Positions 39,000-62,245 of a stretch of 64,000 nt of DNA are shown here, piece by piece. The DNA is from a virus. The notes below the pieces were generated by a model. That model ran no database searches and was not told where the DNA came from. It saw only the letters and a list, made by a program, of their open reading frames with translations. Position numbers and translations under genes: made by a program. The DNA is taken from positions 7,829 through 71,828 of IMG/VR virus record IMGVR_UViG_3300045988_144346. One strand, written 5' to 3'. Numbering within the stretch: the first letter of the stretch is position 1; the number at the start of each line of letters is the position of its first letter.

Positions 39000-39420
39000 T
39001 GTTAAACTATCGGAGGATATAAATACCCTACCGCCATTCCAGACCGGAGCGCCGAAGCGAGCTGCTTCTTACGGGCTGCAGCTTATAGCAAAAAGGGAGA
39101 AGGACCCGCACCAAAAGGACGTGAAACCATGCGGCTGGCTGTATAGCGGTTTTAACCTCAGCAGTTCAGGAGGTATACAAAAGAGCCGGCAGGTGAAAGT
39201 TGACACTCCCCATGCCTAAAGGCAGGGGATTCTCGGTTCGCTGACCGTAGCCTGCACCGTGCGAGGTCTTACATGGTCTCCCCGAGCGTATAGGTTTGGG
39301 CGCGTCCCGCCCTACCGTAGGTATTACTTACGTCAGCAGGCGCAATCCTTCGCTTAGAATGTTTCTTGCAGCGTTGATGTCCCGGTCGTGTTGGGCACCG
39401 CATACGGGGCAAGTCCAACT
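39000..39420 (-). ncRNA. putative TnpB omega-RNA (reRNA) region
   Basis: Established TnpB biology places the guide-RNA scaffold across the tnpB 3' end and the right end of the IS. This stretch has many GC hairpins (e.g. CCCCTGCC-TTT-AGGCATGGGG) and no credible ORF. Confidence 0.35.
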
Positions 39421-40446
39421 GCGGACAGATAGGTTTTTTGTTCCGCTCCATTGAGTGCCGCATTCAGAGCAAAGCTGGCTGGATGGATAGAATCTGTCAA
39501 TCACCACAATCTTTTTCCCGTACCATTCTGCCTTATATTCCAGTTGTCTGCGGAACTCACCCCATGAAGCATCGCTGATAGATTTTGCCAGTTTGTGATT
39601 CTTCACCATGTTTCTCGGCGTTAGATCCTCAATGCAGATCACATCATTCTGCCGTACAAATTCCGTCGATAGCTTTTGAAGCGCGTCCTGCCGCTGATTG
39701 AAAATATGCTCATGCATCCGGGCGACTTTGATTCTTGCCTTTTCGTTCCGGTTGCTCCCCTTTGTTTTTCGGGAGAGCTGCCGTTGTAATTTGGCAAGTT
39801 TCTTTTCGCTCTTTGTAAGGAATTTGGGATTGGGGTACTCTTCGCCATCTGAGGTAACAGCAAAGGATTTCAGCCCCATGTCGATGCCGACCGCCGCCCC
39901 GGTAGAGGGCAGTGGCTCCATCTCCACATCGGTGCAACACAGGGCGACGAAGTATTTGCCACTTGGGGTCTGGCTAACGGTTGCGGACAGAATCCGTCCC
40001 TCTACAGGCTTGCTGATCCGGCATTTTACCCTACCCAGCTTGGGGAGCTGTACAGCACCGTCTAACACTTTGATGTTGCTTCCAACGCACTTGCTCTTAT
40101 AGCTTTGCCGGTGGTTTCGCTTGCTTTTGAATTTTGGGTATCCGGACTTCTCACCCTTTTTGACCCGCCGAAAGAAGTTCTGATAGGCTGTATCCAAATC
40201 CTGTAGAGAGGATTGCAGAGCAGTTGCGTCAACTTCCCGCAGCCAGATGGTTTCTTCCTGTTTCTTCAGAGATGTCAGGCCTTTGTCTTGCGTGAATCGT
40301 GTGGGAGCTCTTCCTGTTTCTCTGTACTGCTCCATTCGTTCAGCAAGAAAATGGTTGTATACGAAACGAACACAGCCGAACGTACATTGTATTAAAGTTT
40401 CCTGTTCCGCGTTCGGATATATCCGAAATTTATATGCACGTTCCAT
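39328..40446 (-). CDS. tnpB: RNA-guided endonuclease TnpB (OrfB_IS605 + Zn ribbon)
   Basis: [12 protein letters not shown] start, RuvC motifs GIDMGL / CIEDL / [11 protein letters not shown], zinc ribbon CSECG...CPVCG. Confidence 0.9.
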
Positions 40447-40488
40447 AGTGAACCCCACTGAATCTGCGTTTTAATTGTTCTTGGGCCG

Positions 40489-40750: not shown

Positions 40751-40999
40751 TTATCCGCCTATCCGCTGGGCTTCCGCCAGATGCTTAGCCACGTCTTCGA
40801 CGCTGAACTTCCGGCCGCCGCATATCTGATAAAAGGTCACGTCGGCAAGCCACTTTTTGGCAGTGCCATAGCTGACGCCGAGCTCCGCCTGGATCTGTGG
40901 GATCGACAGGTATCTCGTTTTGTAACGTTTCGCAAGATCGTTCGCCAAAACCACCTCCTGCGGTGAGTTGGCATAAACGGTGCGTTTCAGTCGCGGCAT
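40751..40999 (-). CDS. small HTH DNA-binding early protein (82 aa)
   Basis: GGGAGGTG RBS. LSIPQIQAELGVSYGTAKKWL is HTH-like. The track ORF is over-extended. Confidence 0.55.
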   Translation of the reverse strand: MPRLKRTVYANSPQEVVLANDLAKRYKTRYLSIPQIQAELGVSYGTAKKWLADVTFYQICGGRKFSVEDVAKHLAEAQRIGG

Positions 41000-41022: not shown

Positions 41023-41340
41023 TCAGGCGTTTTCCAGAAGCTGGCGGACCTGCTTTTTCGTATCGTCGCTCGCTTTCGGAAGCAGCCGAAGAATGCATTG
41101 AAGATCGTTTTCTTTCTTAACGGCGGCTCGTCGGCTCTCTTCAACGCTGTAATACAGATCCTCCACGGAGCAGCCGTACAGCAGTGCCATAGCAGCAGCC
41201 CGCTCCGGGCGCGGGCCGTAAAGCCCTTTTTCGTAAGCTGTCAACGCAGACGGCGGAAAACCGCAAATGCGAGAGGCGTTCGATATGCTGATGCCGATTT
41301 TTTCCCGGCGTTCTCTCAGATCCATCATGGAATCCTCCAT
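41023..41340 (-). CDS. Cro-like XRE-family HTH regulator
   Basis: LRERREKIGISISNASRICGFPPSALTAYEKG. First gene of the minus-strand lytic operon, facing the CI-like gene. Confidence 0.75.
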   Translation of the reverse strand: MEDSMMDLRERREKIGISISNASRICGFPPSALTAYEKGLYGPRPERAAAMALLYGCSVEDLYYSVEESRRAAVKKENDLQCILRLLPKASDDTKKQVRQLLENA

Positions 41341-41518: not shown

Positions 41519-41878
41519 ATGAATGAATTGTTCGATTTCAACAGATTCGAGGCTTTGCGCGAGGAAAAAGGAATTACCAAAGCCTTTATTGCCCAAAAAC
41601 TTAACCGCGCTCCCGTTATTTGCCACGATTGGAAACTCGGAAAATCGACTCCCAGCGAGCAGCAGATCAAGGTCGTAGCGAAAATTCTTGGCACTTCACC
41701 GGAATACCTGAAGGGGGAAACCGATAAAAAAACCCCCGCCGAAGCCGGCGAGGGAAGTAAGTATGATCGTATTATTATGGAGATACTGGAAAATATCACG
41801 GATGAGACGAAAGCGGCTCTGATCCCGCTGCTTCAGCAGATGCAGCGCCAAGAGGAGGCAAAGAACGGTTCTCGTTGA
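41519..41878 (+). CDS. CI-like XRE-family HTH repressor
   Basis: LREEKGITKAFIAQKLNRAPVICHDWKLGKSTPSEQQIKVVAKILG. AAGGAG RBS. Divergent from the cro-like gene. Confidence 0.75.
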   Translation: MNELFDFNRFEALREEKGITKAFIAQKLNRAPVICHDWKLGKSTPSEQQIKVVAKILGTSPEYLKGETDKKTPAEAGEGSKYDRIIMEILENITDETKAALIPLLQQMQRQEEAKNGSR

Positions 41879-42038
41879 AGCGCATCAGCGCCTGATATTT
41901 CGGATCTTTCGCAGCGGCCTTTTTAAGGGCGGAAATGAAGATCCCTTTCTGTTCTTCGTCAAGCTGATGGAAAAGGCGCAGGATAACCTGATCGTAGTCC
42001 AAGGGGAAGCCTCCTTTATGTCTTGATAATATCATCAT
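41796..42038 (-). CDS. possible small convergent ORF overlapping the CI 3' end
   Basis: AAGGAGG RBS precedes an internal TTG. Helical sequence DYDQVILRLFHQLDEEQKGIFISALKK. Overlaps CI by 83 nt. Confidence 0.35.
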   Translation of the reverse strand: MMILSRHKGGFPLDYDQVILRLFHQLDEEQKGIFISALKKAAAKDPKYQALMRFNENRSLPPLGAASAEAAGSEPLSSHP

Positions 42039-42321
42039 ACAGTATCCGGAGTCCGATATTCCGTACTTAGTATCTTATCAGGCGAATTTTGCCGTGGCAA
42101 TAGTTTTTTTGAAAAGGTTCCGCCGCCGCGTCACCGGCCGCGGCGCCAGCAGAGACAACGTAAAAAGCCCTGTTGTCTGCTGCGTATTAAGCGTAGCAGA
42201 TACTCGTGCGATTTGTCCAACCCCAAAACACAGCTTTTCCGTCCCAATGTGAAGAAGCTGTTCGGTTAATTCCCAAAAACGGGTTCAAATCGCAGAAATA
42301 ATGCTACGAGGTAGAGGATTC

Positions 42322-42918
42322 ATGGAAGAATTAGAAAATCTCGTTTGCCAGACACAGGAGCAGTTGGAAGTTGCCCAAAAGATTATGGCAGACGAAAAAG
42401 ACAGGCGAAGTTTATCCTACCAGAAAATTGTCGATCAGACGGGTATTCCGAAATCCACCGCCGAGCGATTCCTCGGATTGAAAAGCAGCAACTCCAGCAC
42501 AGTTCATTTTATCGTCCTATGTAAGTTGTTCGGTATGTCTGCCGACAGTTTTTTCGACATTGCCAAAGAGTCTCCGACCAGCCAGGAAACCGACCGGGCC
42601 GCTCACAAGATCGAGTTGTTGCAGCTAAAGAACAAATATCTGGAAAAGAACAATGCGTTTCTCCGTAAGGCGGTTGAAAAGAAAAACCTTTATATTGCCG
42701 TTATATCCATCCTTTCTCTGATACTGCTTATCCGAAATACCGTAATGGACATGAACAACCATCATATTGGCTTCTTCCGCGGCGAGTGGACACCGATGTC
42801 CACAGCAGGCGTTCTGCTGATCGTGATAGCCGCCGTAATATGCATTGTCGCCATCATAGCCAATCTCGGCAGCCGCGCACACTGGAAAAAGGAAGAAAGC
42901 AAAGGCCAAGACCTCTGA
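42322..42918 (+). CDS. membrane-anchored HTH protein (HTH + coiled coil + 2 TM)
   Basis: SYQKIVDQTGIPKSTAERFL HTH. TM segments LYIAVISILSLILLI and AGVLLIVIAAVICIVAIIANL. Lies between the repressor and the integrase. Confidence 0.6.
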   Translation: MEELENLVCQTQEQLEVAQKIMADEKDRRSLSYQKIVDQTGIPKSTAERFLGLKSSNSSTVHFIVLCKLFGMSADSFFDIAKESPTSQETDRAAHKIELLQLKNKYLEKNNAFLRKAVEKKNLYIAVISILSLILLIRNTVMDMNNHHIGFFRGEWTPMSTAGVLLIVIAAVICIVAIIANLGSRAHWKKEESKGQDL

Positions 42919-42930
42919 AAGGAACCCGCC

Positions 42931-44145
42931 ATGCCTAAAAGCGGATCAAAAGAATATAAATATATCCGAAAATCGTTTGTTGCCGACGGGAAGCAATACA
43001 TAGTATGCGGAAAGACAGAAGCCGAGGCGATGGAAAAACTCGCCGCAAAGAAAGAAGCCGTCCGGCGCGCGGAATTAACAAAAGGTGTAAACTGCACAAT
43101 CGAGGATTGGGCCGATACATGGCTGACCACCTACATTAAACCAAAGGTCCGCAAACCTGGACAGCCGAAGAAAAAAGGCACCATGACGCAAAAAAGCTAT
43201 GAAATGTATGAGGACAAGATCAACGGATATATTATCCCGGCGCTTCGAGGTAAAAAGCTGCGCAGCGTCACCGACACGATGCTGCAAGGCGTGCTGAATC
43301 AGCAGGCGGAAATGTCTGAGTCCCACGCGAAAAAAGTACGAATGATCCTGCGTGCCATGTTCTCGCAGGCTGCCTTTTCTCGCATAATCCCCTTTGACCC
43401 GACCATCAAGCTTACCATTCCCGCGTCTGCTACTGCCGAAAAGCGCCGCTCGCTTACCGCCGAGGAGCGCGCCGTTCTTATGCAAGTGGCGAAGACGCAC
43501 CGGTGTAGCCTATGGATTCGTTTTCTCATGCGCACGGGCCTGCGCCCCGGCGAGTGCGCCGCACTTCGTGTGCGCCATCTGGACATGGAAACGCGGCTTA
43601 TTCACGTTTGCGAAGCCGTCGAGTCCGGAACCACTGTAATTGCGACGCCGAAAACGTCTGCCGGAGACCGGTATGTTCCTATCCCTTCGGACATTTATGC
43701 CGATCTGAAACGCCACATTAGCGGGAAAGACAAGGACGACTTTGTTTTCACGCAGGAAGACGGTAAATCCATGATGACGCAGACGGTGATGACAAACAAC
43801 TGGCGCAGTTTTTCCCGGCAGATGGACATCGCCATGGGCGCCGAAATGACAGCGCACGGCCATATCTACGACCCGAAAGACCTTGATAAGGACGGGAAAC
43901 CGTTGTATCCAGACAACGCCGGGAACCCGAAGAATGGTCACAAAATTGCTCCCGATCTTGTTCTGTATTGTCTGCGGCATACCTACGGTACAGATCTGCA
44001 GCGCGCCGGGGTGCCAATCAATATAGCAAAGGCGATCATGGGTCACAGCGATATTTCTGTGACAGCAAACGTATATACTGACGCAACTGTCGAAGATGCC
44101 ATGTCCGCGCGCGACTTAATGGACTCAGCAATAAAAACTACATGA
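42931..44145 (+). CDS. int: tyrosine integrase (phage integrase family, 404 aa)
   Basis: N-terminal SAM-like domain. RTGLRPGE, CLRHTYGTDLQRAGVPINIAKAIMGHSDISVTANVYTD (R..H..R..H..Y). Confidence 0.9.
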   Translation: MPKSGSKEYKYIRKSFVADGKQYIVCGKTEAEAMEKLAAKKEAVRRAELTKGVNCTIEDWADTWLTTYIKPKVRKPGQPKKKGTMTQKSYEMYEDKINGYIIPALRGKKLRSVTDTMLQGVLNQQAEMSESHAKKVRMILRAMFSQAAFSRIIPFDPTIKLTIPASATAEKRRSLTAEERAVLMQVAKTHRCSLWIRFLMRTGLRPGECAALRVRHLDMETRLIHVCEAVESGTTVIATPKTSAGDRYVPIPSDIYADLKRHISGKDKDDFVFTQEDGKSMMTQTVMTNNWRSFSRQMDIAMGAEMTAHGHIYDPKDLDKDGKPLYPDNAGNPKNGHKIAPDLVLYCLRHTYGTDLQRAGVPINIAKAIMGHSDISVTANVYTDATVEDAMSARDLMDSAIKTT

Positions 44146-44226
44146 AAAAAATAATTGACAACCGGCAAAAGCACTGATTTTCAATAGTTTTTATCGGATT
44201 TGTCATCGTACTCTGACTCCGTATGT

Positions 44227-44254
44227 GAGGGTTCGAATCCTTCTCCCGCTGCCA
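44227..44254 (+). other. tRNA 3'-end fragment (T-arm + acceptor 3' strand + CCA) = att core
   Basis: GAGGG-TTCGAAT-CCTTC TCCCGCT G CCA. The complementary 5' acceptor strand AGCGGGA is absent upstream, so this is not a whole tRNA. Confidence 0.7.
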
Positions 44255-44260
44255 GCGAGC

Positions 44261-44306
44261 AAAAGCTCAAAATCCTTTATTTTCAAGGGGTTTTGAGCTT
44301 TTTTCT
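44261..44306 (+). terminator. rho-independent terminator after the tRNA fragment/integrase
   Basis: AAAAGCTCAAAA...TTTTGAGCTTTTTTC. Confidence 0.7.
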
Positions 44307-44340
44307 TTGTCTCGCCGCCCCCTTTTTCGATAGCCGCCGA

Positions 44341-44393
44341 TTTCAAATCTTTCAAATATTTCAAATCTTACATTAAAAATCACATTAAAAATT
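44341..44393. repeat. tandem short repeats, candidate integrase arm-type sites
   Basis: TTTCAAATC TTTCAAATA TTTCAAATC (44341-44367), then ACATTAAAAATC ACATTAAAAATT (44370-44393). Confidence 0.6.
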
Positions 44394-44410
44394 TTTGCGT
44401 GATCGTAGAA

Positions 44411-44441
44411 AGAAGAGGGCGAAAATCGCCCCCTTTATTTT
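44411..44441. terminator. short bidirectional hairpin terminator after the sigma-factor gene
   Basis: GAGGGCG-AAAAT-CGCCCCC flanked by TTTATTTT (plus strand) and TTCTTTCT (minus strand). Confidence 0.5.
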
Positions 44442-44923
44442 AAAAATCTCTCGATTGTCTTTCTGGCGCGCCCAAGTTCCTGCGAAACGTACTGCGGCGT
44501 GCATCCAAGTGCGTCGCCAATATCATAAACAGACAGCTCAGCGCTGCGCATAGTAACCATAAGCCTTTGTGTAGGCGTAAGCCGCTTCATCATGTCTTCG
44601 AGCGCTGGGTGCTCGTCCTCCTTCCCGACAGTTTCCTCGACAAGTAATCGGCTATTCGGCGAAACGAAATCATCTAACGGCAGTGCCGCGATCTGCGGCT
44701 TGCAGCAATCTCGGATATATCGGCGCACCGCCATGAAAATGCCCTTGACCGCAAATGTTGAGAATTTAGCTCCTTTTTCCGGATAGTATTCCGCACACGC
44801 CTGCCATAGCCCTATCCTGCACACTTGTAGAACATCTTCGTCAACTTTAAGACTCGGGAAATACTTTTTCAAGGTAAACCAAACAAGCGACTGATTTTCT
44901 TCATACAGTTTCTCTGGCGTCAT
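44435..44923 (-). CDS. sigma-70-family RNA polymerase sigma factor (regions 2 and 4 only, 162 aa)
   Basis: Region 2-like VCRIGLWQACAEYYPEKGAKFSTFAVKGIFMAVRRYIRD. Region 4 HTH LSVYDIGDALGCTPQYVSQELGRARKTI. ATGA overlap with the upstream gene. Confidence 0.8.
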   Translation of the reverse strand: MTPEKLYEENQSLVWFTLKKYFPSLKVDEDVLQVCRIGLWQACAEYYPEKGAKFSTFAVKGIFMAVRRYIRDCCKPQIAALPLDDFVSPNSRLLVEETVGKEDEHPALEDMMKRLTPTQRLMVTMRSAELSVYDIGDALGCTPQYVSQELGRARKTIERFLK

Positions 44924-45495
44924 GTTTGAAGAGCCTCCACAAAACAATAGCTCTGCGGCGGTCTCGTGAGATTACACTGCGTACATTCTGAACACTTCGG
45001 CGTTGCCATGCCGAGATTGTCAAAGTAACATTCTCTGCTGTGTTTCTTGAACTCAGATATTTCTTTCGGCTTGTCGTAGATTTTCAGATCAGAGATATGC
45101 CAGCCAAACCCCGGGTTGCCGCCCAAATACGCATTGATCTCCTCCTCTGTTAAGCACGCCTCTTCGAGGAGCCGCCCGATTGGAGATTTCCAATCTCCGT
45201 TATTTGCAATTCGATATTCCGGTTCTCCGCCACGTCTGGTGAAGCCGACACGCGCCAGATGGTCAATTCGGTCGCACACCAACTCGCCAATAACTTTCCC
45301 GCCGCCATAAAAGCCTTGCTTTTCCACCAGCGCAAAGAAATCCTCGTGTTCAAATCGCGGCTTCGAGCAATAGACATACACCTTAAACGGCGTTTCCAAC
45401 TTCGGGCGTGTCTTGCGCACTTCCATCGTCTTTTCCCCGGCGGCAATCAGCTCGCACCAGCGCGGCTGGATGCTTAACATTACAGCTTTACTCAT
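44920..45495 (-). CDS. ASCH-domain (PUA-like) protein
   Basis: MLSIQPRWCELIAAGEKTMEVRK is a typical ASCH N-terminus. C-terminal Cys cluster. Confidence 0.65.
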   Translation of the reverse strand: MSKAVMLSIQPRWCELIAAGEKTMEVRKTRPKLETPFKVYVYCSKPRFEHEDFFALVEKQGFYGGGKVIGELVCDRIDHLARVGFTRRGGEPEYRIANNGDWKSPIGRLLEEACLTEEEINAYLGGNPGFGWHISDLKIYDKPKEISEFKKHSRECYFDNLGMATPKCSECTQCNLTRPPQSYCFVEALQT

Positions 45496-45793
45496 AGGTT
45501 TTCATCTTCCCTTTCTCGCAAAATCCGTCTGCGGGCTTAGGATAATCGTAATAGTTGCAAAAGACTTCTTGTTCGCTGCCCTTGAGAGACAAGTCCGGGT
45601 CTCCAAGTCGGCAGTCCTTGCAATGCACAACCTTTTCATACCCCAGCTGTACCGCCATGCGCTTAAACTGGCTGCGGGTGGGGCGGTCTATGGTGGGCGC
45701 ATCCTCTATCAGTTTTCGGGCTTTCCCCGGCTCTCCTTCGTGCTGCCGGTCGTATTCAGCAAGCAGAGCGTCAGCGTCAATCAGTCTTGCCAT
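45488..45793 (-). CDS. hypothetical early protein
   Basis: Start MARLIDADALL with a G-rich RBS. The longer start at 45835 lacks an RBS. Confidence 0.45.
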   Translation of the reverse strand: MARLIDADALLAEYDRQHEGEPGKARKLIEDAPTIDRPTRSQFKRMAVQLGYEKVVHCKDCRLGDPDLSLKGSEQEVFCNYYDYPKPADGFCEKGKMKTYE

Positions 45794-45850
45794 TCGCTGC
45801 ACCCCCCATTCCACCGCCACATACAGCGGGGACATTTGCCGTAGCAGGGT

Positions 45851-46159
45851 TTATGCATCGCTGTCACCGCCCTTATACTTCGGCATATCCGCCCATGCTT
45901 TCACGCCGTCCCAGTCGCCGTGTTCTTCAAGCTCAAACAGTTTGTCGCCGTATTCGTCGCGGTCGCTCATGCACATATCCTGCGACACTCCAAAGATTGT
46001 GGCGATAAGAATATTCTTCCCGTCATCCGGCATTTCGCAGGAAAACGCATATTCGGGAATCTCGTAGTTAGCGTATCCACGTTCGATATATTCTGTTTCT
46101 TCTTCTGCTGTTAGACGGCGCGTCGTGATCTCGTGCCAGACGATTTTTTCTTCAAACAT
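45851..46159 (-). CDS. hypothetical early protein (102 aa)
   Basis: Acidic protein in the packed operon. Confidence 0.5.
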   Translation of the reverse strand: MFEEKIVWHEITTRRLTAEEETEYIERGYANYEIPEYAFSCEMPDDGKNILIATIFGVSQDMCMSDRDEYGDKLFELEEHGDWDGVKAWADMPKYKGGDSDA

Positions 46160-46367
46160 CAGCTTCTACCTCGCTTTCGAGCCATTTTCTTATGTCCTCC
46201 TCGGGAAACTCTACGAACATGCAAAGGTGGAAAAATGGGCAGACGGTGCAGTTGAGCTTATCCGGGAAAACGCATTCTTCCATCTGCGCAATATAGACTA
46301 ACAAGTCGGATATATCGCAGTTACAAAGGTCGCACACGATTTTCTCACGGTTCGTCATTGTGTTCAT
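46152..46367 (-). CDS. Cys-rich small protein (71 aa)
   Basis: CDLCNC...CTVCPFFHLC. Overlapping starts and stops with neighbours. Confidence 0.5.
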   Translation of the reverse strand: MNTMTNREKIVCDLCNCDISDLLVYIAQMEECVFPDKLNCTVCPFFHLCMFVEFPEEDIRKWLESEVEADV

Positions 46368-46476
46368 CCTTTCTCTGATAGCAATTCAGCAGCGTGTCTA
46401 TCGGGTCGCAGAAGCAACAGGGCTTTCCGTCCGCAGCGCTCGGCGGGTAGTGGATGCAAAATTCACAGTCGTTCAT
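46345..46476 (-). CDS. possible Cys-rich micro-ORF (43 aa)
   Basis: MNDCEFCIHYPP...CCFCDP. Fills the gap in the operon. Confidence 0.3.
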   Translation of the reverse strand: MNDCEFCIHYPPSAADGKPCCFCDPIDTLLNCYQRKDEHNDEP

Positions 46477-46688
46477 ACGAATGCCCCCTCTTGCCAATCG
46501 TTTGGTATAATGGCATGGTCTTTCATAGCGCACTCAAATTGAAGCTCTTTGAACGTGAACACGTTTTCTCTTATGAGCAAACCAACCGCAGCGATAAGAC
46601 GACCTTCGTCGGTTATCTCGTTCCTTGTGCCAAAATTTACATAGTCCCGAAGAAACCTGTAAATTCTCCTGTTTCTTTCTTCGTTCAT
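46473..46688 (-). CDS. hypothetical early protein (71 aa)
   Basis: Start MNEERNRRIY; packed operon. Confidence 0.45.
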   Translation of the reverse strand: MNEERNRRIYRFLRDYVNFGTRNEITDEGRLIAAVGLLIRENVFTFKELQFECAMKDHAIIPNDWQEGAFV

Positions 46689-46987
46689 TCCGCACCGCCC
46701 ATCTTTGCGCCGCAATGGGGACAATAGGCGGGTAGGTTTTCCTCTGAAACAACAACACCCGTGCCCTTATGCGGATTTTCGCCACACTCGGAGCAGCACC
46801 AAACATAAAAGTCGGTGTTGTACTGCCACCGCCCATGCCGTACAGGTGCAACGTCGGCGGCAGGCAGTTTCTCCAGCATCTGCGCCGCTTTTTCAAAATA
46901 CGGAGCAGCGTCCATCAAAACCGCCATGTTTGCTTTTGCACGAAAAATAGACACGCCCGTCCTGCGCTCAATATATTCAGCCATCAT
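46685..46987 (-). CDS. early protein with C-terminal zinc ribbon (100 aa)
   Basis: AAAGGAG RBS. MMAEYIER start; CCSECG...CPHCG. Confidence 0.5.
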   Translation of the reverse strand: MMAEYIERRTGVSIFRAKANMAVLMDAAPYFEKAAQMLEKLPAADVAPVRHGRWQYNTDFYVWCCSECGENPHKGTGVVVSEENLPAYCPHCGAKMGGAE

Positions 46988-47309
46988 TTTCTCCTTTCGG
47001 TGGTTCGGGAAGCGGCATCCACGCAAACACACGCGCTTTCTGCCCCAGTGAATCCCCCGCACCTGTCCAATGGCCATTATACTGGTAGGCGATCTCGTAG
47101 GTCGTATACATCCGGTTATAAGAGCCATAGCGGTAGTATTCGTACCAGATGAGGACGTGCTCGCCATTTTCCGGAAGTCTGTCCTTGACGCTGATCCATT
47201 GCGGGACAGAGACGGCGGGAAGCGCCATGATGGTCTGTACGTTTTTTGCGCTGCACCCGTCCTGCATCAATCGCATAACCGCCGCTTCGCGTTCTAAGTA
47301 TTCAGCCAT
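46977..47309 (-). CDS. DUF551-like protein
   Basis: MAEYLER start. WISVKDRLPENGEHVLIW is the DUF551 hallmark. Confidence 0.55.
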   Translation of the reverse strand: MAEYLEREAAVMRLMQDGCSAKNVQTIMALPAVSVPQWISVKDRLPENGEHVLIWYEYYRYGSYNRMYTTYEIAYQYNGHWTGAGDSLGQKARVFAWMPLPEPPKGENDG

Positions 47310-47487
47310 TGTCAGTCCTCCTGTTCCATGTAGCAACCACCGTTTCTACGGCGTTGCTTTCTTGCCACATGACATCCGTCATATTCATTGTGCCTACATA
47401 GCATTTAGAGCAAATTTCTCTCACGCCGTCATTTACAAGCAGCCGTGCTTTTCCGCCGCAGAACGGGCAAGGTTTAAGCTCCTCCAT
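47302..47487 (-). CDS. Lar-family restriction-alleviation protein (61 aa)
   Basis: MEELKPCPFCGGKARLL...CSKC. Confidence 0.6.
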   Translation of the reverse strand: MEELKPCPFCGGKARLLVNDGVREICSKCYVGTMNMTDVMWQESNAVETVVATWNRRTDNG

Positions 47488-47489
47488 TG

Positions 47490-47795
47490 TCAGCCCTCCC
47501 AATCAATCGCCTGTCCGCAATCGGGGCAGAAGCGGGTTTTTCTCCCAGCGCAGAGCTCCCCATTAATTTCGGACACAAATCTCGTTCCACAAGCCACGCA
47601 GCAAAAGTGCTTAGAGTCTTTTTGGTTTAACACAACCGGTGGCTCCGGTATCTGCTTGTCCAGCGCCTTACACGCCATAAGGCAAGCCTCGTCTACCGCC
47701 TCCTGCAATTTCTCCTTGCCTTTGAACCCGATCTCGGCAAGGGCTTCCCGCGTAGTGTCCGGGTGAAGGATTCGTTTTGCTTCTTCGTAGGTCAT
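47490..47795 (-). CDS. early protein with C-terminal zinc ribbon (101 aa)
   Basis: MTYEEAKRILHPD start. CCVACG...CPDCG. Confidence 0.5.
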   Translation of the reverse strand: MTYEEAKRILHPDTTREALAEIGFKGKEKLQEAVDEACLMACKALDKQIPEPPVVLNQKDSKHFCCVACGTRFVSEINGELCAGRKTRFCPDCGQAIDWEG

Positions 47796-47947
47796 GCCGC
47801 GTCCTCCCATACTGGGCGGCTTTTCTTCCACTTGCGCCAGCGGATAAAGCGCCACCGGGGCGGCTCGCTGTCCAGCCACTTGTTGAAATGCGCGATGTAC
47901 TCAAGGCGCAGATTGTACCGGCGCTTCTTTTCCTGTTTTTCGTTCAT
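47792..47947 (-). CDS. possible basic Trp-rich micro-ORF (51 aa)
   Basis: GGAGG RBS. MNEKQEKKRRYNLRLEYIAHFNKWL... ATGA overlaps at both ends. Below the track cutoff. Confidence 0.35.
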   Translation of the reverse strand: MNEKQEKKRRYNLRLEYIAHFNKWLDSEPPRWRFIRWRKWKKSRPVWEDAA

Positions 47948-48102
47948 TTTTCATCCTCCGTCAAAATTTCTCGGTCAAGAACCGCGTCGATTGTTTCCAC
48001 TGCGTCGAGGAGCGCACCCTCTACGTCGGCTCCTGTTCCAAGCGAAATTCCCTGAATCTTGCCGAGCATGCGCTGGATCGTGGAAAAATCCTTTCTTGTC
48101 AT
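47944..48102 (-). CDS. possible micro-ORF (52 aa)
   Basis: MTRKDFSTIQRMLGKIQG... Coupled to its neighbours. Confidence 0.35.
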   Translation of the reverse strand: MTRKDFSTIQRMLGKIQGISLGTGADVEGALLDAVETIDAVLDREILTEDEK

Positions 48103-48650
48103 GGTTCGGCCTCCAAAACGAGTGTGTTGATATTGTCGGGAAGCTCTGCCCACAGTAGAACGTCCTCCACAAGGTACTCGAAGTCTTCTCCATCCCCATA
48201 GAAGCCGGGCGTCGCCTCTTCTTCCCAAGAGTTCACAAACGAACTCGCGTGGTAATACAACTGCTCGTAATAAACGTAGCCGCTTTTAAGCATAGATTCC
48301 TGCGCGCAGAGGCAGCGGCAGTCTTTGCCCGGAAGCCGATCTTTCACGCTCGTGAAGCGCAGTCCGGTACTGGCCCTTGCGAGCAATTCGTTAAAAGTCA
48401 TCCCGGAGGCAATAAGCTCGTCCTCGAACTTTTTGTATTCCAGCACGTCGGTCGGGGACATTGTAGTATCCTCGTACTCTTTCAGCCGTTCCCACACCTT
48501 GCGCTGGCTGCATGCGCCGTCCGGGCAGTATTTGCCCCAGCGCTCTTCGCGGCATTTGGCAATGTCGCAGAAGTTGCCATCGAAAGTAAGCCGACCGTAA
48601 GGAAGCTTTGTTTTATCCATTGGCTGGTTCGATTCCTCCTCGTTTTTCAT
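48099..48650 (-). CDS. DUF551-like protein (183 aa)
   Basis: FTSVKDRLPGKDCRCLC DUF551-type motif in the C-terminal half. Confidence 0.5.
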   Translation of the reverse strand: MKNEEESNQPMDKTKLPYGRLTFDGNFCDIAKCREERWGKYCPDGACSQRKVWERLKEYEDTTMSPTDVLEYKKFEDELIASGMTFNELLARASTGLRFTSVKDRLPGKDCRCLCAQESMLKSGYVYYEQLYYHASSFVNSWEEEATPGFYGDGEDFEYLVEDVLLWAELPDNINTLVLEAEP

Positions 48651-49083
48651 TTTTGCGGTAAATCACAACCATGCTCGGAAACGGCGCGCTGTTTGTTGCG
48701 TTTCCGAATTTCAACCGCCCACGCACAAAGCGGATTTCGGCTTTGCCGTAGATGAACTCGTGAAACCATCGTGTGTCCGTCCGAGCCGGAAGAAGCATAA
48801 CAATCGTGTTGCCGTTCTTTTCGTGCTCCTCCCACGCTTTCTGTACCCACTTTCCGATCTCGCGCCCGTAAGGGGGATTGCAGAACACCGTGTGGTCTCC
48901 CCACCGGCGGGTGAGTCCGTTCTGCTCTTTCGTGAAGAACGTCTCGCATTTGTGGTTCGCTTCATTCGCCGCCGGATCAAGAGTAAAGTGAAATTCGCCG
49001 TTCAGCTCATCAAAGAACGCCTGCGGCGTCGCCCATTCGTCAGTGGCGGAAGAAAACATCCCGCCAAACTGTTTATCTGTCAT
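48613..49083 (-). CDS. phage N6-adenine DNA methyltransferase (Dam/phage_N6A_met type)
   Basis: DEWATPQAFFDELNGEFHFTLDPAA, FCNPPYGREIGKW (NPPY), LLPARTDTRWFH. Confidence 0.8.
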   Translation of the reverse strand: MTDKQFGGMFSSATDEWATPQAFFDELNGEFHFTLDPAANEANHKCETFFTKEQNGLTRRWGDHTVFCNPPYGREIGKWVQKAWEEHEKNGNTIVMLLPARTDTRWFHEFIYGKAEIRFVRGRLKFGNATNSAPFPSMVVIYRKNEKRGGIEPANG

Positions 49084-49210
49084 CGGCATTACCTCCAAAA
49101 TGATGCTTTGTTACGGCGATGGCAAACGGCTCAATCTCCGCATCACCGATCCTTGTGATATCTCCTAAGTGTTTAATGAAAATCGCCTCTCTTTCAGAAT
49201 GCCATCAGCA

Positions 49211-49480
49211 TTACCGCGCCTTATCATCAGGTATGCTTCGATCCCAACGCAGACCCCCTTCGGGCTCTTCCCGGAGGTTGCTCCGCTCTACGCCAGTAAT
49301 CTTTCCAAAAATAACGCCTGAAGCGTCCCTCAACAGAATTAAGCATCTGTCACCGCTCCGCTGAACCTCGATGCCGCAAGGGGCGAACAGCCCACCAGCG
49401 TCGTGCTCACCGCTGATATCGCACGCACCAGTGTAGTTCTCTACCTCAACCTGGGCGGCTAAAATAAACATAGCCGTCAT
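49211..49480 (-). CDS. hypothetical protein, first gene after motif copy h
   Basis: GGAGG RBS. The start is ambiguous (GTG 49483, ATG 49480 or 49471). Confidence 0.45.
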   Translation of the reverse strand: MTAMFILAAQVEVENYTGACDISGEHDAGGLFAPCGIEVQRSGDRCLILLRDASGVIFGKITGVERSNLREEPEGGLRWDRSIPDDKAR

Positions 49481-49492
49481 CACCTCCTGCCC

Positions 49493-49523
49493 TATATGGC
49501 AATCACAGCCTTAAATTGCAACC
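49493..49523 (-). promoter_or_regulatory. conserved promoter-like motif, copy h
   Basis: Minus strand GGTTGCAATTTAAGGCTGTGATTGCCATATA followed by GGGCAGGAGGTG. Confidence 0.5.
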
Positions 49524-49983
49524 AGTCTACTTGAAATATTAAAGTATCCCAGCAACGGCTTTACCCGTAATTATGTATGAAAAAAGTCCCGGAAACGCTC
49601 AATGAGAACGTTAGCCAGGACTCCTTTTTATTGATGTGGGCTGAATAGTTGGGGTGGGGGTGGTGCCGCGCGGGGTTACGCAACCGGTTCTTAGCGTTCA
49701 ATTTTGAAAGTAGGGGGGCGTTTGACATGTCTTAATTGATATTAAGAGCAGTTAAAAGGCCGCTCCAGCGGCCTTGCTTTTGCCCGTCCAGGCGGGCGAC
49801 GGATGATTGTTTTTCATGCACACATGAACGGTTTTTCATTTTTCACACCCTTTTTTTGCTCGGGCTGTCGCCTTTATTCTGTTGCTATGCGCCGGGCGTT
49901 GCGGTTGTATGATTGGCTCGGCGGGCGCTTGTGCGCGTGTTCATATGGGGCGCAGCGGCTGCCGCAAGCGCCAACAGGGGGGA

Positions 49984-50116
49984 CATATATAGATAGATAT
50001 ATATAGACACATATAATAGATACATATATAGATATATAATTATATACATAGTTATATGATATATAGCTATATAAATAACTAATAAAAAGAAGAAACAAGC
50101 AAAGAAGAAAAAGACG
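49984..50116. repeat. AT-only low-complexity tract plus polypurine run
   Basis: About 100 nt of ATATAGAT/ACATATA-type words (49984-50085), then AAAAAGAAGAAACAAGCAAAGAAGAAAAAGA. GC-rich DNA lies on both sides. Confidence 0.8.
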
Positions 50117-50329
50117 CAGATCCGGGCGGGACATACCGCGCCGCCGTCCCTGTCCCCCTGGACGCTGGACGCTGGAGGCGGCGGCATATGCGGATATAGA
50201 TCCGGCATAGCTGCGGCCCATAAGCGCAGCAGCGCGCCCCAATAATATAAAAGCAACCCGCGGCATGTGCCCCGGGCTGCTGTTCCCCCTGTATGCGCTT
50301 GTATGGCCTCTCAGCGCCGTTTTGCCGTC

Positions 50330-51145
50330 TCATCGGTGTAGGGGCATTGCCGCGCCGGTTGCGTCCCTGTACGCCGTTATACGCGCCCGTATGGCGCTAA
50401 GACGTTTGCGGACAGCTTGCCCACTCATGCCTATAACCGCGCCTATATCGTCCGTTGTGTACCCGGCGGCCGCGCCGCGGATAATTGCGGCGTCTATATC
50501 ATCCCCGGCGGCGGCGTGGATAGCGTCGCGGATCTCTCCGGCGTCCTCGATCGGCCGCGCCGTCGCTCCTCTCATGCGGGCATTGTGCGCCTTTTCGGCC
50601 GGCCCTATGTCGGCGGCGTCCGCAAGATCCGGCGCGCTGCCGCCTATGCTATGCGTGTTTTCGCGGGCCTCATGCCGCAGCGCGTCCAGGGCGGCAAATA
50701 ACAGTTGATCGCGCAGCGGGCGCGGATCTCCTGACTGGAGACGGGTCTCGAGCCGGATCCAGGCGTCGCCTACCAATTCAACCGGCTTGCAGCCGCCGGC
50801 GGCGCGGACGTTCGCCGGCTTGAGCGCGCAGGCGGCGCTGCAGGCGGCCTTGAGGGCGTCGAATTTGGCCGCGTCGTCCAATTCGATCCAGCGCCCGCAG
50901 GGCTCAAGGACATAAGCGGCGGTAAACTCCTCCGGCGTCTTGTGGTAGATCGTATCCAGCAGCCCCAAAAGCTCTTCAGGCGTATTTGCGACGGCGCTGG
51001 AGCCATAATGGCTATAGTTGATATAACGGCCGTCGTCGCTGACGGACAGCGCGGCATAATAGATGTTACCGGCGCAGCCGCGGACGTTTTGGCCATACGT
51101 CGCGCCGCGGTTGATGTTCTTGTAAATGGTCTCGAGTGTCGTCAT
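50330..51145 (-). CDS. hypothetical protein with C-terminal sigma70-region-4/LuxR-like HTH (271 aa)
   Basis: GYTTDDIGAVIGMSGQAVRKRLSAIRARI. Very GC-rich gene. Confidence 0.5.
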   Translation of the reverse strand: MTTLETIYKNINRGATYGQNVRGCAGNIYYAALSVSDDGRYINYSHYGSSAVANTPEELLGLLDTIYHKTPEEFTAAYVLEPCGRWIELDDAAKFDALKAACSAACALKPANVRAAGGCKPVELVGDAWIRLETRLQSGDPRPLRDQLLFAALDALRHEARENTHSIGGSAPDLADAADIGPAEKAHNARMRGATARPIEDAGEIRDAIHAAAGDDIDAAIIRGAAAGYTTDDIGAVIGMSGQAVRKRLSAIRARITAYRDATGAAMPLHR

Positions 51146-51177
51146 GATATTTTATCCTTTCCGGCGCGTTGCGCCTG

Positions 51178-51291
51178 TCAAATGTTGCGGATCCGCTGCG
51201 CGTCACGACGGCGGGCCCGGTTGTACTCGATCTCTCCGGCGATTTTATCCAGGGCGACGGCGGCGACAGCCGCCAAAATTAAAACGATCAT
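51178..51291 (-). CDS. possible 37-aa single-TM peptide
   Basis: MIVLILAAVAAVALDKIAG.. ATGA overlap with the upstream gene. Confidence 0.35.
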   Translation of the reverse strand: MIVLILAAVAAVALDKIAGEIEYNRARRRDAQRIRNI

Positions 51292-51473
51292 ACGCGCGCC
51301 CCCTGCAGAATGTCCGCGTTGATTTTTTCCGCTTGTGCGGGCGTTGCCTGTACGGTGATGTAACACCCGTCGCCGCAGCCGGCAACGTCCAGCAACACCG
51401 CGCCGGCGGCGCGGATGATCCGCAAATAACGCGCCTTTTCGGCGCTGTCGATCAAACAAGAAAAGTTTTTCAT
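51288..51473 (-). CDS. hypothetical protein (61 aa)
   Basis: Packed operon position. Confidence 0.45.
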   Translation of the reverse strand: MKNFSCLIDSAEKARYLRIIRAAGAVLLDVAGCGDGCYITVQATPAQAEKINADILQGARV

Positions 51474-51487
51474 GTTTCCGCCCCCCC

Positions 51488-51841
51488 TTAAATAAAATAA
51501 AGTGATCCGTCAATCTCAAGACTAACGGCCTCCTGCTGCAGATCGGCGCGCATGTCGGCGCAAACATTTATTACGGTGTCCAGCTTGCGCTCGAGATCCT
51601 CTCCGGCGGCATAGGCATAAACAACGGTTGTTTTTTCCTCCACAAGGCCGGCGGCGTCGCTCATCCAATAACCGAGCGCCGGGGTTGCCGTCGCGCCGCC
51701 GAAAAGATTTGACAGCGTCGCGGCCGCCATTTTGACATATCGGGCATTATCGGCGGCGGTGTTGACGCCGTCCGTGCCGGGAACGTAGATTGCTACGCGA
51801 TGACGCAGCGGCTGCAGTTTTTCAAGTCTCTTGTTAGTCAT
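51488..51841 (-). CDS. hypothetical protein (117 aa), first gene of leftward operon
   Basis: GGGAGGA RBS. Start MTNKRLEKL. Confidence 0.5.
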   Translation of the reverse strand: MTNKRLEKLQPLRHRVAIYVPGTDGVNTAADNARYVKMAAATLSNLFGGATATPALGYWMSDAAGLVEEKTTVVYAYAAGEDLERKLDTVINVCADMRADLQQEAVSLEIDGSLYFI

Positions 51842-51888
51842 TTTTTCGTCCTCCCTATTGTCGGGGCTCTTGTCCCCTTGCAAGTATG

Positions 51889-51917
51889 ATTATATGCCGT
51901 TTAACGGCATAAGGCAA
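51889..51917 (-). promoter_or_regulatory. leftward promoter with perfect palindrome in its spacer
   Basis: Minus strand TTGCCT, 17 nt, TATAAT (context GGCATATAAT). The spacer holds the 8-1-8 palindrome ATGCCGTT-T-AACGGCAT (51894-51910). Confidence 0.5.
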
Positions 51918-52007
51918 GAGACAATTTTGCCCAAAGTTCAAAGGCTTATTTTAGATATTTTGTATATTGTTTAACAGTATAATAAATGTTATCATAACCT
52001 CGAGGGG

Positions 52008-52256
52008 GTGTTTTTATTGCCATTACCCAAAACGGGCAAGCGAACAGACGCGCAGCGCCGCGCCCGAAATAAATGGGATGCGGCGAATATGACAACATTA
52101 GGTTGCCGGATGCGCCGAGACGACGCCGAAAAATTCAAAGGCGCGTGTTATTCGGCAGGAACGACGCCGAACGCCGTTTTTACCGCGGCGGCGGCGGATT
52201 TTATGGAAAAAAACGCAAACAATAACAAAACGTCTGGAGGTGCTGAAAATGAGTAA
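52008..52256 (+). CDS. putative ribbon-helix-helix DNA-binding protein
   Basis: KTGKRTDAQRRARNKWDAANMTTLGCRMRRDDAEKFKGAC...TPNAVF resembles plasmid/phage RHH proteins. GTG 52008 or TTG 52017 start after GAGGGGG. Confidence 0.45.
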   Translation: MFLLPLPKTGKRTDAQRRARNKWDAANMTTLGCRMRRDDAEKFKGACYSAGTTPNAVFTAAAADFMEKNANNNKTSGGAENE

Positions 52257-52461
52257 CCGCGACATTGCGAAAACCTTAATTGACCAGATCCCGGAAACGC
52301 GGCTTTTTAACGTGATCCTCTTTTTACAGGGGGCCGCGCTTCCGGACGCGGAAACGCCGAACGCGGAAACAGCCGCCGCAATTGCCGAGCTTGCGAACGG
52401 CGGCGGGACACGCTTTAGCGGCGACACGTCGGCGCTTTTTGCGTCGATTCTGGAGGGCTGA
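52249..52461 (+). CDS. RelB/DinJ-type antitoxin (70 aa)
   Basis: GGAGG RBS. ETPNAETAAAIAELANGGGTRFSGDTSALFASIL is typical of antitoxins paired with YafQ/RelE toxins. Lies 4 nt upstream of the toxin. Confidence 0.6.
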   Translation: MSNRDIAKTLIDQIPETRLFNVILFLQGAALPDAETPNAETAAAIAELANGGGTRFSGDTSALFASILEG

Positions 52462-52465
52462 CAGA

Positions 52466-52735
52466 GTGCTGGAGATTGTCTATTCCTCCCGCTTTAAGCG
52501 CGACTTGCGGCAATGCGCCAAACGTCAATTAGATTTAACCAGACTGCAAACCGTCATTGACACACTGCGCACGCCCGCGGCGCTCCCGGCACAAAACCGG
52601 GATCACGATTTAACGGGGAATTATTCCGGTTTTCGGGAATGCCATGTTTCCCCGGATTGGTTGTTGATCTACCGCGTGGACGGTAACGCGCTGTTATTGG
52701 CCCGCACCGGATCGCATTCCGACTTGTTCAGCTGA
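52466..52735 (+). CDS. YafQ/RelE-family mRNA interferase toxin (89 aa, GTG start)
   Basis: YSSRFKRDLRQCAKRQLD, HDLTGNYSGFRECHVSPDWLLIYRVDGNALLLARTGSHSDLF (YafQ signature). Confidence 0.8.
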   Translation: MLEIVYSSRFKRDLRQCAKRQLDLTRLQTVIDTLRTPAALPAQNRDHDLTGNYSGFRECHVSPDWLLIYRVDGNALLLARTGSHSDLFS

Positions 52736-52764
52736 TTCGTTTAATAAGTAAAACAATGTGCAGC

Positions 52765-52796
52765 CCCCGGCGGTATCGTCCGCCGGGGATTTTTTG
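52765..52796 (+). terminator. rho-independent terminator
   Basis: CCCCGGCGG-TATCGT-CCGCCGGGG ATTTTTT. Confidence 0.8.
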
Positions 52797-52803
52797 CGCC
52801 GCC

Positions 52804-52834
52804 GGTTGCAATTTGCCGCCGTTGTTGGCATATG
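52804..52834 (+). promoter_or_regulatory. conserved promoter-like motif, copy b
   Basis: GGTTGCAATTTGCCGCCGTTGTTGGCATATG. Confidence 0.5.
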
Positions 52835-52971
52835 AGATATAAAGCAAGCCCCGGCAGCCTCCGGCGGATCGGTAAACGCCGCCGCCCCGGCCGACCGCCG
52901 GGCCCAGCGCCCAGGGTTGCCGGTCCCAGCCCAGCCGCGCCGCCCCCAGCGCTCACGCGAAAAGAAAAACG

Positions 52972-53028
52972 ATTTCACGGGGGCCCGGGCGCGCAGGAGC
53001 CGCCCGCATTTCACGGGGGCCGGGCGCG
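52972..53028 (+). repeat. 21/22-nt direct repeat in a GC-rich leader
   Basis: ATTTCACGGGGGCCCGGGCGCG (52972) and ATTTCACGGGGGCCGGGCGCG (53008). Confidence 0.7.
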
Positions 53029-53175
53029 AGCCAAGGACCGCCGAATTTGCCCGGCGGCGCCATGCCGCAGGGACGCCGGCACGATCGCATACCAGCACGC
53101 ACACCCGGCGGCCATGGCCGCGAGACAGTAAAACATATCCCGCCCCGGAGGTTACGAGGGCAGAAAGGAATTGAC

Positions 53176-53439
53176 ATGCGGAGCTACGTTTACATCGCCT
53201 ACACGGCAGAACAGGACAAGAACGAAACCACATTTACAGAGCGAAAGACCCCGGAATATTGCCCCGGCCGTTATGCCGCTGTTCTCCGCGTAAGTTCAGA
53301 CAATAACATTTTGTCGGCGCTGTCCGCCATCGGCGGGCTCAAGGCGGCAAACGCTTTCCCCAGCAAAAAACAGGCGGAGGAAACCGCCGCGTTTTGGAAT
53401 GAGTGCTACAAGCGAAACGGCACGTATCTTTTTGCGTGA
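53176..53439 (+). CDS. hypothetical protein (87 aa)
   Basis: GAAAGGAA RBS. Start MRSYVYIAYTAEQ. The only protein-like ORF between promoter b and the terminator at 53679. Confidence 0.5.
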   Translation: MRSYVYIAYTAEQDKNETTFTERKTPEYCPGRYAAVLRVSSDNNILSALSAIGGLKAANAFPSKKQAEETAAFWNECYKRNGTYLFA

Positions 53440-53602
53440 TTCAGACAGAACAAGCCGAGTTAGGCGGCCCCTCCAACATGCCGCCCGGCTGGTACGGCGA
53501 GCCGGGCGAGATCGGCGAGCACATGCCGCACGATGGCGGCCATACGCGCATCCGCCCCATACCGGACGATTGACGCGCCCGCCCCGGCTCACGTCTGAAG
53601 CT

Positions 53603-53690
53603 CTGCAAAGCCGCCCCCGGAGATCTGCACAAAGCCCCCAGAGAACCACAGAAACGCCCGCCGGAACGCTGCAAAAAATCCCCCCGGAAG
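53603..53690 (+). repeat. four phased degenerate 22-nt tandem repeats
   Basis: CTGCAAAGCCGCCCCCGGAGAT / CTGCACAAAGCCCCCAGAGAAC / CACAGAAACGCCCGCCGGAACG / CTGCAAAAAATCCCCCCGGAAG. Confidence 0.5.
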
Positions 53691-53719
53691 CCGCCGCCTC
53701 CGGGGGGAAATTATTTTTT
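53679..53719 (+). terminator. rho-independent terminator
   Basis: TCCCCCCGGA-loop-TCCGGGGGGA, then AATTATTTTTT. Confidence 0.8.
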
Positions 53720-53725
53720 GCGTTT

Positions 53726-53756
53726 GGTTGCAAAACGCGCCTATGCCTGGCATATA
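53726..53756 (+). promoter_or_regulatory. conserved promoter-like motif, copy c
   Basis: GGTTGCAAAACGCGCCTATGCCTGGCATATA. Confidence 0.55.
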
Positions 53757-53799
53757 GGGCAGAAAAGCAAAACGGAAACGCGAAAGGAGAAAGCAAAAA

Positions 53800-54225: not shown

Positions 54226-54238
54226 GGAGGCGCAGATC

Positions 54239-54484
54239 ATGAATAACGACATTCTCAAGAATTTTGTCGAGCAGGAGCTCAACGACCACAACAAACACAA
54301 CAACGCCGGCCTCGCCTCCGTCGGTTTTTTCGACGGAGCGAAGACCGAAGAAGTGACCTTCCACAGCAACCACCGCGCGCAATACAACCGCCTGCTGATG
54401 TTCTGCGCGGAGAACGGCCTGACCGTCGTTTCCACGCATCCCGGCACGCTTGCGGCTGTCGTTCGTGTAGAGACCGGCAAATAA
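54239..54484 (+). CDS. hypothetical protein (81 aa)
   Basis: AGGAGG RBS; followed by a terminator. Confidence 0.55.
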   Translation: MNNDILKNFVEQELNDHNKHNNAGLASVGFFDGAKTEEVTFHSNHRAQYNRLLMFCAENGLTVVSTHPGTLAAVVRVETGK

Positions 54485-54500
54485 ACGCCAACAGAAGAAA

Positions 54501-54714: not shown

Positions 54715-54742
54715 AAGCATAAAGCAAAAGGAGGTCACTACC

Positions 54743-62221: not shown

Positions 62222-62245
62222 TTCCAAAAATTCCATAAAACAGCA

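Follow-up and report, generated by a model that had tools for sequence, protein, structure and literature searches.

Phage DNA on both sides of an integrase-adjacent tRNA fragment: the probable attP site of an unintegrated temperate phage of gut Oscillospiraceae

Introduction

The window analyzed here, 64,000 nucleotides (nt) of virus DNA from IMG/VR record IMGVR_UViG_3300045988_144346 (positions 7,829 to 71,828 of that record), raises the question of why phage genes continue on both sides of an apparent attachment site. An integrase gene (int) is followed by the 3' part of a transfer RNA (tRNA) gene, and beyond this fragment, where a prophage integrated at that tRNA would be expected to give way to host DNA, there are further phage genes. 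The initial annotation of the window offered two explanations: one large temperate phage genome that carries an unrecombined attP site, or two related elements that abut one another. Here we compare the window with public assemblies and report that it very probably represents 64 kb of one unintegrated genome, that of a 71,584-bp temperate tailed phage of gut Oscillospiraceae, with the int-adjacent site as its attP.

Results

The int-adjacent site contains a 46-nt core, ACTCTGACTCCGTATGTGAGGGTTCGAATCCTTCTCCCGCTGCCAG, at window positions 44210-44255 on the plus strand, 64 nt after the int stop codon. Positions 44210-44254 are identical to positions 30-74 of tRNA-Gln(CTG). This block starts with the last base on the 5' strand of the anticodon stem, includes the anticodon loop and ends with CCA; the core adds one base to it. 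A tRNA 3' fragment lacking its 5' half had been annotated at 44227-44254; the fragment and the missing half are both real, but its start lies at 44210. ARAGORN detected no tRNA gene in the 64-kb window, so the 5' half of the tRNA is absent, and Rfam at gathering thresholds gave no match in the window. The lack of a second core copy or a full tRNA, first judged by eye, held under an approximate search: GGTTCGAATCCTTCTCCCGCTGCCA (44230-44254) occurs only once in the window even when three mismatches are allowed, and shuffled sequences gave 0 matches.

The integrase was correctly placed at 42931-44145 (+), with phage genes on either side. It is a 404-amino-acid (aa) tyrosine recombinase (PF00589, E = 2.6e-22) that also carries the N-terminal SAM-like domain PF14659. 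Its translation contains TGLRPGE (Arg), an LRHT box, GHS and NVYTD (Tyr), and we assigned the residue roles by inspection; both the catalytic domain and its conserved residues are present. This protein, referred to as Int, is indexed in 163 blocks of the public assembly collection and is the likely catalyst of integration. Between its stop codon and the core lies the P arm (44146-44209), and the P' arm extends from the other core edge to the sigma-factor gene (44256-44434). As annotated, a terminator follows the tRNA fragment; a terminator scan found a strong hairpin and then a T-run at 44261-44302. The tandem arm-like repeats, first noted at 44341-44393, were found at 44340-44393 and are A/T-rich: three copies of TTTCAAAT at 9-nt spacing (44340-44372) and two copies of ACATTAAAAAT at 12-nt spacing (44368-44393). 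Since the P arm holds a related TGATTTTCAAT, these repeats may bind the N-terminal domain of Int or accessory proteins, and we consider them candidate arm-type or accessory-protein sites.

We compared the window with public-assembly loci and contigs, which are labeled L followed by a number. Looking up the Int protein returned contigs of two classes. One class (52-72 kb) shares with the window the core, terminator, repeats and sigma-factor gene that follow int. In the other (80-219 kb), int and the core are followed by host plsY, 5'-nucleotidase, phosphonate ABC transporter and folC genes. The two classes are identical through window position 44255 and unrelated from the following base, and the same Int protein therefore adjoins attP in some contigs and attR in others. 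The corresponding look-up with the sigma factor led to L013, where the DNA right of the core is joined to an intact tRNA-Gln(CTG) with addA before it; L013 is 99.98% identical to window 44204-54923. ARAGORN called the intact tRNA in L012-L014. The full host tRNA with the same 3' end, which had been sought, is thus tRNA-Gln(CTG), and duplicates of the core mark the attL and attR boundaries.

Comparison with DNA that lacks the element gave the remaining junction. A metagenome scan for an intact tRNA-Gln with an exact B' flank found 19 contigs with an empty attB site between host flanks. The six that we inspected (L141, L144, L152, L155, L157 and L158) carry addA, intact tRNA-Gln, the native terminator and the B' flank, and open reading frames (ORFs) in L141 place addB and addA before tRNA-Gln and plsY after it. 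All four attachment sites are therefore represented: attP (P-core-P') in the window and L003, attB (B-core-B') in the six inspected contigs, attL (B-core-P') in L013, and attR (P-core-B') in L004-L006 and also in L163. The attP form is found in at least 10 contigs besides the window, and IMG/VR contributes two contigs with the attP junction (66.9 and 72.9 kb). Exactly the same 46-nt core is present in all four sites, and the flanks switch precisely at both core edges. The P arm is the same in attP and attR contigs and differs in attB and attL contigs; the P' arm is joined to an intact tRNA in L013 and in two remnants (L012 and L014). Judged from these sequences, recombination between the attP core and the tRNA-Gln segment yields attL and attR as observed. 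The initial annotation had proposed that related strains with host genes immediately to the right of the core would indicate a conventional prophage, and such genes are found in L004-L006 and L163. They show that the phage integrates in the conventional manner and that the window is the unintegrated form. To the right of the core there is thus phage DNA, the P' arm, in the window, and host DNA in lysogens.

The two remnants deserve separate mention. In L012 (8050-10750) and L014, only 759 nt of phage DNA remain beside tRNA-Gln; they comprise the core, the P' arm and the sigma-factor gene in identical form. Next come a 105-aa ORF that is unrelated and a DUF3267 gene of low GC content, and the attR core and native terminator are deleted. 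This segment is a decayed remnant or, possibly, a retained sigma factor.

A lysogen contig joins both ends of the element. L013, L017, L164 and L163 are parts of one 74,094-bp contig; each matches the window at 99.98-100% identity, and a single offset modulo 71,584 places all four on it. The contig begins with 624 nt of host DNA, tRNA-Gln and window 44.3-64 kb, and continues with 7,584 nt that are absent from the window, window 1-44.25 kb, the core and host DNA. According to precomputed Pfam hits, the 7,584-nt stretch encodes DUF6948, SSB, DUF3310, HNH and Bro-N proteins as well as small ORFs. Hybrid junctions thus enclose the whole element, with the regenerated tRNA at one end and the displaced tRNA fragment, in the same orientation, at the other. 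The order from attL to attR is colinear with the window, and therefore the whole window lies inside a single 71,584-bp integrating unit.

These results bear directly on the proposal of two abutting elements, in which related elements would stand in tandem at one tRNA and the left prophage would end, and the second element begin, at the 44.2-kb fragment. Tandem arrays at tRNA and transfer-messenger RNA genes are known, and Islander lists 125 of them (PMC4383910). Like such arrays, the window has phage-like DNA on both sides of a tRNA gene (tDNA) fragment, and its right arm carries Bro-N modules and methyltransferases of its own, together with a second tyrosine recombinase. Each member of an array needs its own fragment and integrase, however, whereas the window has one tDNA fragment and no tRNA gene, and no tDNA fragment accompanies the second recombinase (834-1793). 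In the lysogen, the tRNA is joined to the right arm, which continues into the left end of the window and ends at int and attR after 71,584 bp, and 71.6 kb integrates as a unit. Neither part is present at the empty attB sites.

The gene content of the window argues in the same direction. We ordered its layout from AT skew and from domain searches of ORFs (Pfam, PHROGs and NCBIfam). These searches identified one structural module, including genes for the portal (26865-28652), tape-measure protein (10738-14964), tail protein (7024-8532) and lysin (3741-4478), and one replication module with DnaB (32419-33762). Both modules lie left of the attachment site. The same searches found no structural, packaging or replication module in the 27-kb arm right of attP, which by its recognizable domains is accessory and early-type phage DNA only. 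As the initial annotation had observed, the modules at the left end (1-833) and near 61-62 kb (61131-62330) resemble one another; these Bro-N modules share 32-39% aa identity and, on this similarity, are paralogues inside one genome. With one tDNA fragment, one structural and one replication module, and a single attL-attR unit, we consider two tandem elements extremely improbable and favor the alternative first put forward, one large temperate phage with an unrecombined attP.

Element boundaries had also been suspected at 2.9 and 50.1 kb. We rejected both, as many contigs, including the lysogen contig, cross these positions colinearly, and this is true of all variants. An A/T-only low-complexity stretch of 110 nt (ATATAGATAGATATATATAG...) lies at 49983-50090 within an 800-nt non-coding gap. 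Contigs of at least three independent origins stop there: L007, L009 and the one that contains L171. This stretch is internal to the prophage and is therefore not an element boundary.

Four attP-form contigs are of genome length (71,565, 71,597, 71,607 and 71,629 bp) and match the window at 100% identity in the parts read. Their break points, at 49.94, 2.38, 63.86 and 63.93 kb, fall in three different places. Because the break points differ and every point of the map, including attP, is spanned by some contig, the map of the 71,584-bp phage is circular, as far as coordinates can tell. Together with the integrated 71,584-bp unit, these contigs support the single-phage interpretation.

An attP junction could also arise in a chromosomal tandem double lysogen (attL-phage-attP-phage-attR) rather than in a free genome. 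Such an arrangement has a true attP junction that short-read contigs cannot separate from that of a free genome, and integrated copies of the same strain do exist. The attP-form contigs, however, amount to one genome unit (71.57-71.63 kb) with permuted breaks and have no host DNA in the parts read. Moreover, the attP form was found in most of the long contigs read, at least 18 of 23 from the Int look-up and 18 of 22 from the sigma-factor look-up, with assembly bias as a possible contributor. A tandem lysogen as the source of the attP junction is therefore very unlikely.

Some points weigh against an unintegrated single phage and have to be set beside this evidence. The break points of the genome-length contigs are calculated from coordinates. 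At the level of contigs, which is what we examined, the attP-form DNA may exist as virion DNA, as a concatemer or free circle, as a tandem prophage or as an episome. In addition, the two flanks of the 74,094-bp contig come from different loci. Its left flank (L013 10745-11367) is the addA locus; its right flank (L163 1-1830) is not the plsY flank but matches, at 97.8% identity, a locus of Vescimonas sanitatis MH37-1 that carries a YuaJ-type thiamine transporter. This mismatch may reflect the use of two attB loci or hosts, a prophage-mediated rearrangement, or a chimeric assembly. The lysogen contig may thus be a chimera assembled across the prophage, but each of its junctions is real either way.

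We next considered whether the phage exists mainly as a plasmid-like episomal prophage that integrates only occasionally, with dimers resolved by a Xer-like recombinase and addiction provided by a YafQ/ParE toxin. Both proteins are encoded in the window: the recombinase at 834-1793 (top NCBIfam match XerD, E = 1e-32, far below cut-off) and the toxin at 52466-52735 (E = 8e-34). The attP form also predominates among assembled contigs, although induction or virions in stool would explain this abundance equally well. We recognized no ParA, ParB or plasmid Rep protein in the window or in the 7.6-kb gap; none of the ORFs scanned against Pfam, PHROGs and NCBIfam, and none of the precomputed Pfam hits in the gap, matched these families, and several ORFs match nothing. 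Furthermore, the phage has a complete lambda-like lysogeny module with Int and attP, and integrated forms occur in at least five independent assemblies. Plasmid-prophage maintenance through the toxin and the Xer-like recombinase, as suggested initially, accordingly found no support, and neither did integration elsewhere through this second recombinase, as the phage integrates at the attP beside the 404-aa Int. A mainly episomal prophage is improbable on this evidence.

Within the leading interpretation, a temperate phage that integrates through Int, the target itself is widespread. A scan with the whole tRNA found identical tRNA-Gln in more than 120 Oscillospiraceae species representatives, among the matches listed. 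None of the species representatives that we fetched has the same addA-plsY flanks (the nearest are 81-92% identical), and a scan of genome contigs for the tRNA 3' end with the B' flank gave no match. Megablast of window 41-50 kb against GenBank phages also returned no match, and the nearest relative of the portal protein is only 43% identical in aa sequence and comes from an unannotated faecal phage. The phage is therefore not a described one.

The genes of the left arm and the lysogeny region are arranged in blocks. Positions 1-2872 (+) encode the end of a Bro-N protein, a 101-aa protein, the Xer-like tyrosine recombinase and a NifS/DndA-like cysteine desulfurase (TIGR03402, E = 1e-67; TIGR03235, E = 1e-51; both below cut-off). 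All variants conserve the recombinase-desulfurase pair (834-2872) as the end of the right arm. Inside the cysteine-desulfurase gene, at 2374-2389, lie the ends of L020 and L176, which are independent contigs of the same strain and stop within 15 nt of each other. The block at 2920-41328 (-) contains, from low coordinate up, lysis and structural genes, replication and recombination genes, and, next to the switch, a Cro-like gene. The first group encodes a metallophosphatase, a CHAP/CW_7 lysin, tail proteins, the tape-measure protein, structural proteins and the portal. The second encodes DUF1064, DnaB, the product of an iteron-containing gene upstream of dnaB, SSB, RecT and YqaJ, and is separated from the switch by a TnpB insertion and small ORFs.

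The iterons comprise four repeats of 30-34 nt at 34396-34660 (AAAAGTGTCTCC...GAGACGCTTTT) and a further 36-nt pair, all within the gene upstream of dnaB. This region shows indel differences among phage variants and looks like an origin inside an initiator gene, by analogy with lambda O. The TnpB gene (39200-40487, 372 aa, IS200/IS605 family; NF038281, E = 7e-160) is not accompanied by tnpA. Its insertion between early genes is confined to this strain of the phage; the variants L001, L002 and L004-L010 have approximately 210 nt instead.

The switch consists of divergently oriented regulator genes. A Cro-like helix-turn-helix (HTH) regulator (41023-41328, -; PF01381, E = 1.5e-09) is the first gene of the leftward early operon, and a CI-like HTH_3 repressor candidate (41519-41878, +; PF01381, E = 1.5e-05) heads the lysogeny operon on the int strand. 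This operon occupies 41519-44145 (+) and continues with a 198-aa ORF (42322-42918, +) and int, next to the attachment site. The 198-aa protein has no match in Pfam, PHROGs or NCBIfam and is called as a gene in all related contigs. The sole excisionase candidate, a weak one, is an 82-aa protein at 40751-40999 (HTH_17, E = 0.0013, below cut-off).

To the right of the core, 44435-51883 (-) encodes a sigma factor and accessory proteins. The sigma-70-family factor (44435-44923, -; PF04542, PF08281; TIGR02937, E = 1.9e-18) is the last gene of a leftward operon that converges on int. The accessory genes at 44920-49098 (-) encode a phrog_3136 protein, DUF551 (46977-47309, -), Lar (47302-47487, -), Dam (48613-49098, -; E = 1.3e-34) and small ORFs. 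Among phage variants this region is mosaic, with 85-97% identity and indels. The initial annotation listed convergent sigma-factor, ASCH, Lar and Dam genes after the core; the sigma factor, Lar and Dam were all recovered, but the ASCH match of the phrog_3136 protein is weak (E = 0.003) and below the Pfam cut-off. From 52 kb to its end, the window (+) encodes the YafQ/ParE toxin, an LPD25 protein, a DUF4942 methyltransferase, Bro-N, an N6/N4 methyltransferase and a Gly-rich repeat protein. For the methyltransferase at 62618-63454, an exact look-up found no match, and the called gene probably has a different start codon. The repeat gene, at 63773-64000 and beyond, is made of 39-nt tandem repeats and its product is rich in Gly, Ser, Tyr and Asp; two SPAdes contigs of the same strain have their break point inside it.

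A promoter-like motif links the two arms. As annotated, copy h lies among the right-arm genes (49493-49522, -), upstream of an 86-aa gene at 49211-49471, and further copies of the motif occur left of the integrase. GTTGC-N19-CATATA has eight exact and two one-mismatch copies in the window compared to 0.5 expected. The exact copies start at 776, 15026, 35196 (-), 49493 (-), 53727, 54685, 55990 and 62295, on both sides of attP, which favors one phage with shared regulation, and a longer form reads GGTTGC-N19-CATATA(G/A)G. Those at 776, 49493, 53727, 54685 and 55990 are just upstream of same-strand ORFs in both phage arms, and two copies have an identical 5' untranslated region and ribosome-binding site. 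A phage-specific regulon is suggested by the resemblance of CATATA to a -10 element and by the sigma factor that the phage encodes. A copy of the motif is, however, also found in host DNA beside attB (L004, approximately 11420-11460).

One small gene with its own motif promoter (14972-15408, +) separates the tape-measure gene from its upstream neighbor, a tail gene. The small gene shares 86-95% DNA identity with host DNA between tRNA-Gln and plsY (L141 7183-7623; L005 and L006 11378-11825), and this host segment is present even at empty attB sites.

Discussion

The four junction sequences, the colinearity of prophage and window, and the circular map agree with a simple scheme of integration, insofar as assembled sequences can establish it. 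The 404-aa Int would recombine the 46-nt core at 44210-44255 with the identical 3' part of host tRNA-Gln(CTG), and the strands are probably exchanged in the anticodon loop, where the identity block has its left edge. In the lysogen, the tRNA gene combines the 29 nt of the host 5' part with positions 30-74 from the phage, and its native terminator is replaced by one that the phage supplies. At attL, the sigma-factor end of the phage lies beside this regenerated tRNA. At attR, 71.6 kb away, int lies beside the displaced host tRNA fragment and the native terminator.

This arrangement matches the tDNA modules collected in Islander, in which the attP next to a tyrosine integrase includes a tRNA 3' part, the target tRNA is split and restored, and the regenerated tRNA and the displaced 3' fragment mark the two ends in the same orientation. 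It also resembles the 'anticodon-centred' attP class, which accounts for 2,083 of 3,919 islands (PMC4383910), in that the identity block begins at the anticodon stem-loop. Nothing here differs in kind from these modules; the particulars are tRNA-Gln(CTG), Oscillospiraceae and a 46-nt core. Specific to this phage is the position of int in the lysogen, beside the displaced fragment and 71.6 kb from the regenerated tRNA.

The lambda Int/attP (POP') system offers a second parallel. In both phages, int is transcribed towards the adjacent attP, short repeats occur in A/T-rich arms, a CI/Cro-type switch is found immediately upstream, and the prophage map is a circular permutation opened at attP. The lambda attB is intergenic, whereas that of this phage is a tRNA gene. 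Arm-type sites, Xis and host-factor requirements have been demonstrated for lambda, and their counterparts here are putative. Mycobacteriophage L5 has a common core of approximately 40-45 bp over the 3' part of tRNA-Gly, and the core of this phage likewise covers a tRNA 3' part. The L5 attP-int region is also located mid-genome between oppositely transcribed arms. L5 differs in host phylum and in tRNA, and we liken the two phages by layout, not by sequence.

Taken together, the locus appears from its sequence to be a canonical tRNA-targeting tyrosine-integrase module with lambda-like logic in an undescribed phage. Since phage DNA on both sides of the attachment core is explained routinely in this way, the finding should not be treated as unusual. 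A dual lifestyle would have further consequences. It is unlikely that the phage lives as a 71.6-kb circular episome in many gut hosts and also integrates at tRNA-Gln(CTG), aided by the Xer-like recombinase and YafQ/ParE. If it did, its host range for lysogeny would be unusually broad, given the number of Oscillospiraceae species representatives that share the target tRNA. Two different attB loci have already been seen. The phage is a prevalent, uncharacterized phage of human-gut Oscillospiraceae, and single-nucleotide coordinates for its attP, attB, attL and attR sites, a genome size of 71,584 bp and a circular map are now available. With the attachment-site coordinates, lysogens and non-lysogens can be told apart in metagenomes, and polymerase chain reactions can be designed for induction experiments.

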